Source: a virus
Lineage: Duplodnaviria > Heunggongvirae > Uroviricota > Caudoviricetes
Length of the DNA: 3,555 bases
Reading direction: 5' to 3' (one strand)
Virus record (IMG/VR): IMGVR_UViG_2529292921_000021
Part shown: positions 1,398 to 3,555 of the stretch, in pieces
Layout: each line of letters begins with the position of its first letter
Numbering within the stretch: position 1 is the stretch's first letter
Notes under the pieces: generated by a model
Told to the model about the DNA's origin: nothing
Seen by the model: the letters and a program-made list of their open reading frames with translations, nothing else
Databases searched by the model: none
Made by a program: the position numbers and the translations under genes

Positions 1398-1951
1398 TCA
1401 TTTATCTCCGACCGGAAACTTCTTATACAAAGTCGATACGCCAACATCATAAATGATCGCCACCTTCTGGCGAGGAACTCCTGATGCAATTAGTCGCCCG
1501 GCCTGCGCCCATTGTTCTGGTGAAAGTTTGGGACGGCGACCGCCAATTCGTCCCTGTGCGCGAGCAGCTTCCAGTCCAGCTTTTGTTCGTTCAACAATCA
1601 GTTCACGCTCCATTTCAGCCAGGGCCCCATCACATGAAAGAAAAAGCGCCCCATTGGGGTACTGGTATCAATTGAATCCGTCAGACTACGAAAGTTGATG
1701 CCTCGTTCGCGCAACTCCTCCACCAGCACGACAAGATGCCGCATACTGCGCCCCAGTCGGTCCAGTTTCCAGACCACCAGCGTATCACCTGCCGATAATG
1801 TCCTGAGCAGTTTTTTCAGTCCCGGCCTTTCGGACTTTGTACCGCTTATCTTGTCTTCAAAAATCAGCTCGCATCCTGCACAGTTCAGCGCATTACGTTG
1901 TAGATCTGTGTTCTGGTCATTTGTTGACACACGTACATAGCCAATAAGCAT
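1398..1951 (-). pseudogene. pin: Gin/Pin/Hin/Cin-family serine DNA invertase, disrupted by a 1-nt frameshift in a G/C homopolymer at about 1622..1628
   Basis: Two adjacent - strand ORFs (1598..1987 and 1398..1613) in different frames together give a full invertase. The N-terminal part is MLIGYVRVSTNDQ... (catalytic Ser in the YVRVS motif) ...MGRFFFHVMG, then frame is lost (PWLKWSVN*). The second frame continues (A)LAEMERELIVERT...GRIGGRRPKL...YDVGVSTLYKK, the helix-turn-helix C-terminus. From 1398 to 1951 is 554 nt, one short of 555 (184 aa plus stop). The true start is the ATG at 1949..1951, with GGGGGA 7 nt upstream; the extra 12 codons in the ORF track are an artefact of an upstream in-frame ATG. 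Confidence 0.8.
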
Positions 1952-1977
1952 GGTAGATCCCCCTGACAAAAGCAGGA

Positions 1978-2550
1978 ATGATGCCATTTGCTCGTTATTT
2001 CTGCATTTTCATAAACGTTGGTTTGGGAGAAGGTGCTCCAGCTATTGGCGTTCCGTTCTTCTGGCCGTCCGCCGCAATGCCAAATACTGTAATCGACAGT
2101 TGGTCCAGCATGGTGTTTTTGAAGTTCAACGGCGCGAAATTCTCTGCCACTGATTACCCTGTGCTGGCGAAAGTGTTTCCGGCGCTGGCATTACCTGACG
2201 CACGCGGTGATTTCATTCGTATCTGGGATGACGGACGCGGGATTGATGTCGGACGTACCCTACTTTCAGGGCAATCACACACAATTATGGATCATGCACA
2301 CAATATGGAATTGTGGACGGGGGACGGGCTTGTCGCAGGAAGTACACGGGAAGGAGTAAACCCAGGAATACTGGCTACATATGGTGACGGGGGAATAGTT
2401 AAAACGGACGAACCCGGTCTTAGGGTGCCTTCCTCACTACGAGCTATTAGCTCTCGTAGCGTTAAACGTTATGGTGAAATTAGTGGAAATGTAGGTACAG
2501 AAACCCGCCCACGAAATATTGCATTTAACTTTCTAGTGAGGGCTAAATAA
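1978..2550 (+). CDS. Tail-fibre C-terminal variable cassette (alternative receptor-binding end, Sv'-like); probably not an independent gene in this orientation
   Basis: 190-aa ORF; the frame is open from 1957, directly after a TAG. It contains a phage tail-collar-type motif (...FNGAKFSATDYPVLAKVFPALALPDARGDFIRIWDDGRG...; LPDARGDF at 2191..2214). There is no convincing ribosome-binding site at the correct spacing (AGGA is only 2 nt before the ATG). It begins at the candidate crossover site and is followed, with a TAATG overlap, by a tail-fibre assembly gene, as stfE/tfaE are in e14. Confidence 0.65.
   Translation: MMPFARYFCIFINVGLGEGAPAIGVPFFWPSAAMPNTVIDSWSSMVFLKFNGAKFSATDYPVLAKVFPALALPDARGDFIRIWDDGRGIDVGRTLLSGQSHTIMDHAHNMELWTGDGLVAGSTREGVNPGILATYGDGGIVKTDEPGLRVPSSLRAISSRSVKRYGEISGNVGTETRPRNIAFNFLVRAK
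2006..2031. other. Candidate invertase crossover site (gix/hix/cix-like 26-bp imperfect palindrome) marking the proximal boundary of the invertible segment
   Basis: TTTTCATAAACGTTGGTTTGGGAGAA agrees with the Mu gixL site as I recall it (TTCCTGTAAACCGAGGTTTTGGATAA) at 18 of 26 positions, including the AAAC / GGTTT arms around a central dinucleotide. It lies 55-80 bp from the invertase start and inside the first codons of the tail-fibre cassette, where such sites sit in Mu, P1 and e14. The match is to remembered consensus sequences only. Confidence 0.4.
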
Positions 2551-3143
2551 TGAAACCTGTTTTTGATGAAAATGGGCTGGCTACAGTACCGGGTAATATG
2601 CGTTGTTTTTATTATGAGGCAGTTACGTATGAATATACTGGCTGGTCTGATGAATATATTAATACTGGCGTAAGTATGCCCGCTTGTTCCACTGGTATTG
2701 ACCCGGGCGAATACATTCCGGGAAGAGTGGCAGTATTTACGGGTAAGGGATGGAGCCATGAAGAAGACCACCGCAATGAGACTGTTTACTCAATCGAAAA
2801 TGGCGCAGCTGTTACAGTGGATTATATCGGTGCCATCAAAGACGGTTATGTCACGCTTTCACCGTTAACGCCATACGATAAATGGGATGGTGAGAAATGG
2901 GTGACGGATACCGAGGCACAGCATAGCGCCGCAGTAGAAGCGGCAGAAGCACAGCGCCAGTCGCTGATTGATGCTGCAATGGCTTCCATCAGTCTGATTC
3001 AAATGAAATTACAGGCTGGGCGGAAGCTGACGCAGCCAGAAAACACCCGACTTAACGCTGTGCTGGATTACATTGACGCGGTGACGGCAACAGATACCAG
3101 CACAGCGCCGGACGTCATCTGGCCTGAACTGCCGGAGGCGTAG
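2550..3143 (+). CDS. Tail-fibre assembly protein (Tfa / Mu U / P2 G family)
   Basis: 197-aa ORF whose start overlaps the stop of the upstream cassette by 1 nt (TAATG), with GAGGG 9-13 nt upstream. The C-terminus (...LDYIDAVTATDTSTAPDVIWPELPEA) carries the conserved Tfa C-terminal motif (DTSxAPDxxWPxxP) remembered from TfaE/TfaR, Mu U and P2 G. Confidence 0.85.
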   Translation: MKPVFDENGLATVPGNMRCFYYEAVTYEYTGWSDEYINTGVSMPACSTGIDPGEYIPGRVAVFTGKGWSHEEDHRNETVYSIENGAAVTVDYIGAIKDGYVTLSPLTPYDKWDGEKWVTDTEAQHSAAVEAAEAQRQSLIDAAMASISLIQMKLQAGRKLTQPENTRLNAVLDYIDAVTATDTSTAPDVIWPELPEA

Positions 3144-3555
3144 GCCATTCAATATCTGGCGCACCGGAAGTATCGACCAGTTCCAGTGCGTCCAGATAAT
3201 CCAGCCACAAATTATATTGCGCCAGTTCCTCACCTTTCAGCCGGCCAATAGCCGCTTTACCAGGCCATTGTTTACTGTTCATATAATCGTTGGCCTGATT
3301 AATCAGTTGCTGCTTTTCCAGTTCGGCTGCAGCAATCTGTTCCTCATGTGTTGGTGGTGGAATTTCAGACCATGCAGGAAAACCATTTTCTCCAGCGATA
3401 CGGATTTTTCCTTTCGGCGGTAATCCGGAAAACTCAATATACACTTGCTCATCAACTTCAACAGCATCATCTGGCCATGAGTCAGCTTGAGTGTAATCCT
3501 CTTTCATCTCCAGCGGATAGAAAGAGTTTGTAGTCGCGGAATATATGTAATTCAT
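3115..3555 (-). CDS. Tail-fibre assembly protein (Tfa family), second copy, convergent with the first
   Basis: 146-aa - strand ORF starting at the ATG at 3553..3555 (the last three bases of the window) and ending at 3115. The C-terminus (...LDYLDALELVDTSGAPDIEWPTPPAVQAR) has the same Tfa motif. It overlaps the 3' end of the + strand tfa by 29 bp. Its ribosome-binding site and the expected upstream tail-fibre gene lie outside the window. Confidence 0.85.
   Translation of the reverse strand: MNYIYSATTNSFYPLEMKEDYTQADSWPDDAVEVDEQVYIEFSGLPPKGKIRIAGENGFPAWSEIPPPTHEEQIAAAELEKQQLINQANDYMNSKQWPGKAAIGRLKGEELAQYNLWLDYLDALELVDTSGAPDIEWPTPPAVQAR

Follow-up and report, generated by a model that had tools for sequence, protein, structure and literature searches.

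A probable two-state Pin-type invertible tail-fibre segment, orthologous to the e14 P segment, at the end of an Escherichia coli prophage

Positions 1978–3555 of the window (the whole 3,555-nucleotide stretch of viral DNA that was analysed) very probably represent the invertase-proximal four-fifths of a ~1.9-kb two-state invertible tail-fibre segment of the Pin type. Our best explanation, held as a whole with the same high confidence, is that this segment is an orthologue of the P segment of the E. coli K-12 prophage e14 and an analogue of the G segment of Mu and the C segment of P1, and that it is located at the end of a ~42 kb prophage with a myovirus-type tail. The system is already known, and the locus is an ordinary E. 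coli copy with machinery near-identical to that of the e14 P segment.

How would such a segment work? A small serine recombinase encoded at 1398–1951 would pair two inverted 26-bp sites, one at 2006–2031 and its partner ~380 nt beyond the window, both of them lying inside fibre coding sequence and encoding the same ..GLGE.. motif, and the segment would flip by exchange at the central AA/TT dinucleotide. In this way either of two tips would be fused in frame to a constant N-terminal head (~117 residues, minus strand, outside the segment). In the state found here, the head would be joined to a Gp53-like tip with a 146-aa Tfa, in the other state to a collar/gp37-like tip (~2019–2550) with a 197-aa Tfa (2550–3143), and the cassette left unjoined would adjoin the invertase gene without a fibre head. 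The likely outcome is that the phage particle has two receptor specificities, the two tips presumably binding different receptors.

The earlier note on this DNA had placed three open reading frames in the region and likened their layout to the Sv'/U' versus U/Sv organisation of invertible tail-fibre segments. The list of open reading frames contains all three, and gene order and crossover site match those of e14. On the plus strand a tail-fibre C-terminal cassette at 1978–2550, whose frame is open from 1957, is followed by a tail-fibre assembly gene at 2550–3143 (197 aa, TfaE-like, Caudo_TAP), and a second assembly gene occupies 3115–3555 on the minus strand (146 aa, TfaP-like, Caudo_TAP). The gene of the Pin-family serine DNA invertase (1398–1951, minus strand) lies outside the invertible segment and is divergent from the pin-proximal fibre cassette. 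The left, pin-proximal crossover site (2006–2031, minus strand, 26 bp) marks the border of the segment on the invertase side. As in other Gin/Pin/Cin-type segments, each tip has a dedicated assembly gene behind it, and the two tip–tfa pairs face each other.

On the minus strand the left crossover site reads TTCTCCCAAACC-AA-CGTTTATGAAAA, with the central dinucleotide at 2018–2019, and the plus-strand frame across it encodes ..FINVGLGE.. The site is identical in 26/26 positions to the pinE-adjacent site of prophage e14, and since 200 shuffles gave 0 matches to such a 26-bp site, the layout is not due to chance. Moreover, the 16-nt inverted-repeat core TTGGTTTGGGAGAAGG at 2018–2033 is the inverted repeat given for the e14 P segment (PMC12529663). 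The source of the window is contig L002 of the draft assembly GCA_000249075.2, which extends 378 nt past position 3555 and stops at '...GCTTCTCCCAA', that is 9 nt into the inverted second crossover site (TTCTCCCAA), the core dinucleotide of which falls beyond the contig end. In AH19B041, the closest complete relative, the inverted repeat is complete (25 nt, 88%), has an AA core and lies inside the minus-strand fibre gene, and the complete locus of strain DEC5E has exactly two full crossover sites, again with the AA core. Neither the window nor the source contig contains any crossover site besides the left one and the one cut at the contig end. With only two sites present, the switch has two states, and a multi-site, shufflon-like system of the Min/p15B type was rejected on the two sites of the complete DEC5E locus. 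An inverted repeat at 3062–3079/3188–3205, considered as an additional recombination site, was likewise dismissed, as it is tfa C-terminal coding sequence, namely the homologous LDYIDA/LDYLDA stretches of the two convergent tfa genes.

The inversion itself can be read from orientation variants at the same chromosomal locus. In DEC5E, window positions 2013–3393 are found inverted (95% identity) with the breakpoint at the crossover site. The tip encoded in the window there constitutes residues 112–289 of a 289-aa fibre (96% identical), in which the constant head is joined in frame to it across ..NLGLGE.., and the Tfa following this collar-type fibre is 95% identical to the 2550–3143 product. The DEC5E head of about 117 residues (residues 1–119 compared) is 96% identical to that of AH19B041, where the same constant head is joined to the Gp53-like tip. 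In strain 300709 the other segment end is inverted and adjoins pin (98%). Both orientations thus occur between strains at one locus, that of DEC5E and 300709 being the reverse of the one in the window and in AH19B041, and all homology breakpoints between the variants fall at the 2006–2031 site, which upholds the reading as an inversion. A flipped junction constructed in silico was found uninterrupted in 125 complete E. coli genomes. A match in H51 was set aside, as it sits in an e14-like remnant at another locus, and the search was repeated with a locus-specific flank. DEC5A and DEC5E were not accepted as an isogenic flipped pair, since their cassette sets at this locus are not the same; the evidence for flipping comes from setting DEC5E and 300709 against the sequence of the window itself.

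The locus belongs to a prophage inserted in the sdsR/ryeA small-RNA locus of E. coli, between pphA and yebY. A scan of the window against Rfam at gathering threshold gave zero matches; the piece of sdsR that remains at the att site is too short. In AH19B041, DUF2612, baseplate J and the remaining genes of a myovirus tail come after the minus-strand fibre gene. As to the intactness of the prophage, which the earlier note had wished to see judged from its structural genes, the module sits in this relative within a complete-looking prophage with baseplate and tail genes, while in the source strain the remainder of the prophage is on other contigs.

Matches of the pin-proximal cassette at 1978–2550 to tail-fibre families are limited to the C-terminal parts of these families: it aligns to positions 467–638 of the 673-position profile of phrog_523 'tail collar fiber protein' (E=3e-53) and weakly to Pfam Collar and the tip of T4 gp37 (2xgf). 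Its product shares 48% identity with e14 StfE, the leader IPLxKAGMMPFAxYFxIFINVGLGEG included, the tip matches the C-terminal end of the 501-aa fibre in phage 500465-2 at 57% identity, and the central part of the tip (2241–2499) is swapped in some relatives. The cassette proper extends from the crossover site (~2019) to the stop at 2550, and fibre homology starts only at ~2013–2017; positions 1978–2005 form a short leader outside the segment, past the invertase start (1951) and ahead of the crossover site (2006–2031), in which ATG-ATG occurs in frame at 1978/1981. The description of the cassette as start-less is to be refined accordingly: the open reading frame has this ATG-ATG, but outside the invertible segment. 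In the promoter and terminator scan of 1850–3555, total counts were at chance level and no sigma-70 consensus was found on the plus strand upstream of 1978, while the AGGA preceding the ATG abuts it (0–3 nt), a poor spacing. The pin-proximal cassette is presumably silent.

The fibre in the expressed position had been predicted to continue on the minus strand past 3555. The source contig indeed shows there, next to the beginning of the inverted crossover site, a Gp53-like fibre tip on the minus strand, with its stop 21 nt upstream of the ATG of the 3115–3555 tfa. Variable tip and tfa are thus as predicted, whereas the constant part lies beyond the end of the source contig. The two tips were expected to differ, and profile searches assign them to different families, collar/gp37-like for the pin-proximal and Pfam Gp53-like_C for the minus-strand tip, with no significant similarity between the former and the latter as found in the source contig and relatives. 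The Gp53-like tip is 27% identical to the StfP tip of e14. As assembled it contains three or more frameshifts in the last ~130 nt of the contig. Compared with the intact copy in strain 300709, these ~130 nt have ~8 single-base insertions and the remainder is 100% identical, and because the insertions cluster at the contig end, the frameshifts show, as far as the sequence tells, the pattern of an assembly error.

The chaperones, too, are as different as had been proposed. The 197-aa product of 2550–3143 (Caudo_TAP, E=5e-27; phrog_105, E=2e-82) is 62% identical to K-12 TfaE, and a PDB sequence search with it gave no match; its start codon overlaps the stop codon of the 1978–2550 tip, which this TfaE-like chaperone serves. 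The 146-aa product of 3115–3555 (Caudo_TAP, E=8e-38; phrog_188, E=2e-66) is 60% identical to K-12 TfaP over 102 aligned residues (its residues 51–146), and this TfaP-like chaperone serves the Gp53-like tip on the minus strand just past the window. The two convergent genes overlap by 29 nt, and their products have in common only a C-terminal stretch of 72 residues with 38% identity.

The invertase has the Resolvase N-terminal (E=9e-39) and HTH_7 (E=2e-15) domains and an N-terminal YVRVSTNDQ motif including the serine. It is 100% identical to K-12 PinE over residues 1–109 and 92% over the C-terminal 71 residues. A loose scan for the Fis consensus gave 4 matches versus 2.8 expected, which is chance level, and none within 1700–1951. 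Between the 5' 330 nt of the gene and K-12 pinE, which is active in experiments, there are few differences, all of them silent, so that the Fis-dependent enhancer expected in this part of the gene is likely conserved. As assembled, however, a 1-nt deletion in the run at 1625–1628 splits the invertase into ORFs 1598–1987 and 1398–1613, and this copy may consequently not flip by itself. The run is G4 in the window, G5 in strain 300709 and GGGTG in others. Among the best matches out of 1,184 complete genomes carrying the invertase stretch the deletion is absent (the best ones are 99.0% identical, with 101 query bases over 102 record bases), for which reason it may be a sequencing error.

Could the region be something other than a working switch? 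Phages show strong mosaicism in their fibre and tfa cassettes, and the different cassette sets of DEC5A and DEC5E at the same locus might suggest a static mosaic of fibre and tfa fragments, assembled by illegitimate or homologous recombination between prophages and containing no inversion module. Against it stand the exact e14 crossover site with a PinE-identical invertase next to it, the inverted partner site in relatives, the in-frame fusion and the orientation breaks precisely at the site, and as the breakpoints map to the 26-bp site, the static mosaic is effectively refuted and retains next to no probability. A frozen relic, in which the invertase is truly inactivated, the minus-strand tip has decayed and the segment is locked in its present orientation, is less easily dismissed, albeit unlikely. 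It would account for the G4 run that splits the invertase into two ORFs and for the three or more frameshifts in the minus-strand tip of the source contig, and decayed copies are known from other strains, with a frameshifted recombinase in 160-11H1 and a truncated segment in 300709. Against it, the deletion affects a homopolymer run and does not occur in the best matches from the 1,184 complete genomes, and the insertions in the tip are confined to the last ~130 nt of the contig. Moreover, Pin-family invertases work in trans, PinQ and PinR being able to invert the e14 segment (PMC12529663). We infer that this copy still flips.

Another explanation, which we regard as quite improbable, sees in the region a host-domesticated phage-defence switch. 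The pin-proximal ORF would not be silent but translated from the ATG-ATG at 1978, and in the flipped state the same start would drive a short Gp53-like analogue of StfE2 that blocks adsorption of other phages. The leader MMPFARYFCIFINVGLGE is nearly identical to the leader of e14 stfE, is conserved in 6/6 loci aligned, and in the flipped state of strain 300709 heads an annotated 130-aa protein with a Gp53-like_C domain; in addition, plasmid-borne production of the chimeric StfE2 of e14, which has the same start design, is reported to block adsorption of T2 (PMC12529663, 2025). Yet this published effect was obtained with plasmid-produced protein, the tip here shares just 27% identity with that of StfP, and upstream of the ATG, which the Shine-Dalgarno-like AGGA abuts, the plus strand has no promoter consensus. 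Conservation of 1952–2005 is equally well explained by this stretch being the invertase's own upstream control region, and for a complete-looking prophage, as seen in relatives, a role in host range suffices. A two-state fibre switch of the phage remains the preferred reading. The more specific proposition, put forward by analogy, that the flipped 1978 start yields a ~130-aa Gp53-like, StfE2-like protein that blocks adsorption of unrelated phages and serves the host, is a shade less probable still. If it were true, Pin-type fibre switches of E. coli prophages would be a general recombinase-gated superinfection defence, which any resident Pin invertase could drive in trans even with the local one broken.

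For the invertible fibre segment as we understand it, the value of the analysis lies mainly in correct annotation and in little beyond. The short ORF next to the invertase, labelled 'phage tail protein', is to be read as an alternative fibre tip and not as a pseudogene, and one more pair of receptor-binding tips, collar/gp37-like and Gp53-like, each with its matched chaperone, can be catalogued. The presence of two orientations among strains can break assemblies and confuse comparative genomics, and orientation variation may have broken the present assembly at the contig's end. Should the defence role of the e14 segment generalise, such loci would be candidates for testing it.

The closest known system is the P segment with its invertase PinE of the cryptic prophage e14, reportedly the subject of work by Plasterk and van de Putte in 1985. 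Its pin-proximal 26-bp site and 16-nt inverted-repeat core are identical to those of the window, its order stfP-tfaP / tfaE-stfE-pinE is mirrored in window and source contig, and the leader MMPFAxYFxIFINVGLGE is common to both. In contrast, the cassettes have diverged (48% for the tip, 62% for the TfaE-like and 60%, over 102 residues, for the TfaP-like chaperone, 27% for the Gp53-like tip), the segment measures ~1.92 kb here and 1,797 bp in e14, and the host element is a prophage at sdsR/ryeA that is complete-looking in relatives, whereas e14 is a remnant at icd. Inversion of the e14 P segment by PinE was demonstrated experimentally (PMC4272514; PMC12529663), and unlike in e14 the invertase here is frameshifted as assembled.

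The same module is contained in the P2-like Escherichia phages 500465-2 (Gemsvirus) and pro483 (Peduovirus), in which, with the same architecture, a short tip ORF has the invertase as its neighbour and is accompanied by two tfa genes facing each other and by a complete fibre gene. Phage 500465-2 is 93% identical to window positions 2015–2240 and 2509–3378, but has them in the expressed position, whereas the orientation in pro483 is that of the window. Both phages differ from the window in the central tip part (2241–2508), their invertases are more distant (75–80% DNA identity), and the constant part of the P2-like fibre is long (501-aa fibre) and P2 H-like, while the head here has only ~117 residues.

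In the G/Gin system of Mu and the C/Cin system of P1 the order is Sc | Sv-U / U'-S'v | invertase. The crossover sites fall within the fibre gene, and the invertase gene, oriented divergently to the silent cassette, lies outside the segment. The system in the window shares with them its logic and its enzyme family, the intact homologue of the invertase in strain 300709 matching the structures of Mu Gin (3uj3/4m6f) with E=6e-93. It differs in the fibre constant and variable parts, in the sequence of the crossover sites and in segment size, 1.9 kb as compared to about 3 kb in Mu and 4.2 kb in P1. Site-specific inversion also varies the C-terminus of an adhesin or fibre in the Min system of p15B and in the R64 shufflon, the latter using a tyrosine recombinase. 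There, however, several crossover sites generate many isoforms, whereas here the complete relative has exactly two sites and the window no additional one.

The ORF listing and profile searches place yebW (1-276, + strand) and pphA (277-936, - strand) at the left of the window, followed by a serine recombinase gene (1398-1951, - strand) that, as assembled, is split into ORFs 1598-1987 and 1398-1613. Next come a fibre-tip ORF (1978-2550, + strand, frame open from 1957), whose matches to tail-fibre families are confined to their C-terminal parts, and two convergent tail-fibre assembly (tfa) genes of the Caudo_TAP type (2550-3143, + strand; 3115-3555, - strand), the 3' ends of which overlap on opposite strands by 29 nt at 3115-3143. 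Since these ORFs and profile matches lie where the earlier note had drawn a fibre cassette with its assembly gene on the + strand and a convergent assembly gene on the - strand, its observation over 1978-3555 is correct. The fibre-tip ORF matches phrog_523 (E=3e-53, profile positions 467-638 of 673) and, weakly, the Collar domain and the T4 gp37 tip. The two chaperones do differ, as had been claimed, belonging to separate PHROG families and resembling each other only in 72 C-terminal residues (38% identity). An 18-nt inverted repeat (3062-3079 / 3188-3205, 83% complementary) arises from these homologous C-terminal coding sequences in convergent genes and was therefore rejected as a crossover site.

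How could such a segment be inverted? Pin-type invertases bring two sites together, and strand exchange takes place at the central dinucleotide. A 26-bp crossover site at 2006-2031 (- strand, TTCTCCCAAACCAACGTTTATGAAAA) occurs once in the window and in 0/200 shuffles, and is identical at 26/26 positions to the site adjoining pinE in e14, the cryptic prophage of E. coli K-12. The same region contains a 16-nt inverted repeat, TTGGTTTGGGAGAAGG (2018-2033), which in e14 borders the P segment (PMC12529663). Residues 1-109 of the invertase encoded at 1398-1951 agree with PinE at 100% identity and its last 71 residues at 92%, and an intact homologue matches Mu Gin structures with E=6e-93. Its gene is split into two ORFs by a 1-nt deletion in a G-run (1625-1628), which has four Gs in the window and five in strain 300709; K-12, AH19B041, DEC5A and DEC5E read GGGTG at this position. 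The best matches among the 1,184 complete E. coli genomes carrying this stretch reach 99.0%, aligning 102 record bases to 101 query bases, and none of the matches listed has the deletion. The deletion is either a private mutation or else a homopolymer miscall in the draft assembly, a possibility raised by the clear errors where the contig ends. Should the deletion be real, other Pin-family invertases would still act in trans, as described for this family (PMC12529663).

The source contig, AIEW01000031.1 (GCA_000249075.2), which includes the window and encodes a 197-aa Tfa, extends 378 nt beyond it. This extension fits the expected - strand fibre gene and second crossover site to the right: it encodes a - strand fibre tip, the stop of which lies 21 nt before the tfa start, and breaks off at ...GCCGCTTCTCCCAA, after the first 9 nt of an inverted site. 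As assembled, the tip contains several frameshifts. The copy in 300709 is intact and 100% identical to the contig except for the last ~130 nt, where about eight single bases are inserted in the contig (AIEW01000031.1 11250-11384, 245-378 nt beyond the right end of the window); as these cluster at the end of an otherwise identical tip, they are read as contig-end assembly errors and not as decay. That the contig breaks here may be due to a repeat or to a sequenced culture that contained both orientations. The - strand tip is a Pfam Gp53-like_C domain unrelated by sequence to the collar-type tip of the window, so that the two tips differ as proposed.

Decisive evidence of flipping comes from aligning the source contig with the loci of relatives by pairwise BLAST. 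The O55:H7 strain DEC5E is collinear up to window position 2032, whereupon window 2013-3393 follows inverted (95%), and in 300709 the stretch from 3455 to the contig end lies inverted next to pin (98%). The breakpoints in both strains overlap the 26-bp site, and in a six-locus alignment homology classes switch exactly at its inner edge, in support of the reading as an invertible tail-fibre switch. Moreover, the flipped junction, built in silico by joining the pin side to the reverse-complemented Gp53-like tip, occurs uninterrupted in 125 complete genomes and, with locus-specific flank added, at the pphA locus itself. The DEC5E fibre has 289 residues; its constant head of ~117 residues, 96% identical to that of AH19B041 over residues 1-119, joins a window-type tip (96%) across ..NLGLGE.., and the matching Tfa (95%) follows. 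Since DEC5E has exactly two crossover sites, 1,873 nt apart, and the window none besides 2006-2031, the switch has two states; at the window's locus the invertible segment would measure about 1.92 kb.

With the segment oriented as in the window, the expressed - strand fibre would consist of the constant head and the Gp53-like tip, with the 146-aa Tfa as its folding partner, and the 1978-2550 cassette is predicted to be silent; after a flip, the head would carry the collar-type tip with the 197-aa Tfa, giving two forms predicted to differ in the receptor they bind. Alternatively, the pin-proximal ORF could be expressed from the start at 1978, as for StfE and StfE2 of e14, which are headed by the homologous start and of which plasmid-produced StfE2 was reported to block T2 adsorption (PMC12529663). 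However, the ATG-ATG at 1978, which lies outside the invertible segment, has poor SD spacing and the promoter scan found no promoter consensus for it, rendering such expression improbable and a silent cassette the preferred reading.

Within the pin-proximal tip, AH19B041 and phage 500465-2 have unrelated sequence in place of window 2241-2499, with the flanks (2013-2240 and 2500 onward) still 93-99% identical, and RefSeq labels the AH19B041 copy a partial pseudogene; DEC5E retains the whole tip. Judged by sequence, 2241-2499 looks like a hypervariable receptor-contact insert in a conserved scaffold. E. coli 160-11H1 (NZ_AP031375.1, 3853-6510 of the extracted locus) contains the same Gp53-like tip and 146-aa Tfa in an e14-like remnant elsewhere on the chromosome, near paoD, where they adjoin a recombinase that is both frameshifted and truncated, indicating that these cassettes circulate among unrelated prophage backbones. 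DEC5E and DEC5A, both O55:H7, carry different cassette sets in the segment at the same locus (444- and 594-nt tfa genes beside an 870-nt fibre versus 603- and 420-nt tfa genes beside a 711-nt fibre), hence cassettes are also replaced there besides being inverted.

From 1 to 1098 the window is chromosomal DNA that follows K-12 yebW-pphA collinearly and ends within the sdsR/ryeA small-RNA locus. A core of ~32 nt at the sdsR 3' end (~1067-1098) recurs at the integrase/yebY end of the AH19B041 prophage, which places the prophage insertion in sdsR/ryeA and the start of prophage DNA at ~1099. In Salmonella, sdsR/ryeA is known as a hot spot for insertions. At the same locus, AH19B041 has a - strand fibre gene containing the inverted site (25 nt, 88% complementary), followed by genes for DUF2612, baseplate J, spike, tape measure, tube and sheath, then by head, lysis, replication and recET genes and an integrase adjoining yebY (~42 kb in total); the prophage looks complete.

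The earlier observation is real and its interpretation as a switch supported, yet the locus is an ordinary instance of a long-known system. RefSeq labels the genes of relatives pinE, tail fibre assembly protein and phage tail protein. The module also occurs in P2-like phages, 500465-2 having one of the two orientations and pro483 the other. Inversion of the e14 P segment has been demonstrated (PMC4272514; PMC12529663), and the gene order of the window is the mirror image of stfP-tfaP / tfaE-stfE-pinE, its proteins being StfE-like (48%), TfaE-like (62%) and TfaP-like (60%, 102 residues aligned).
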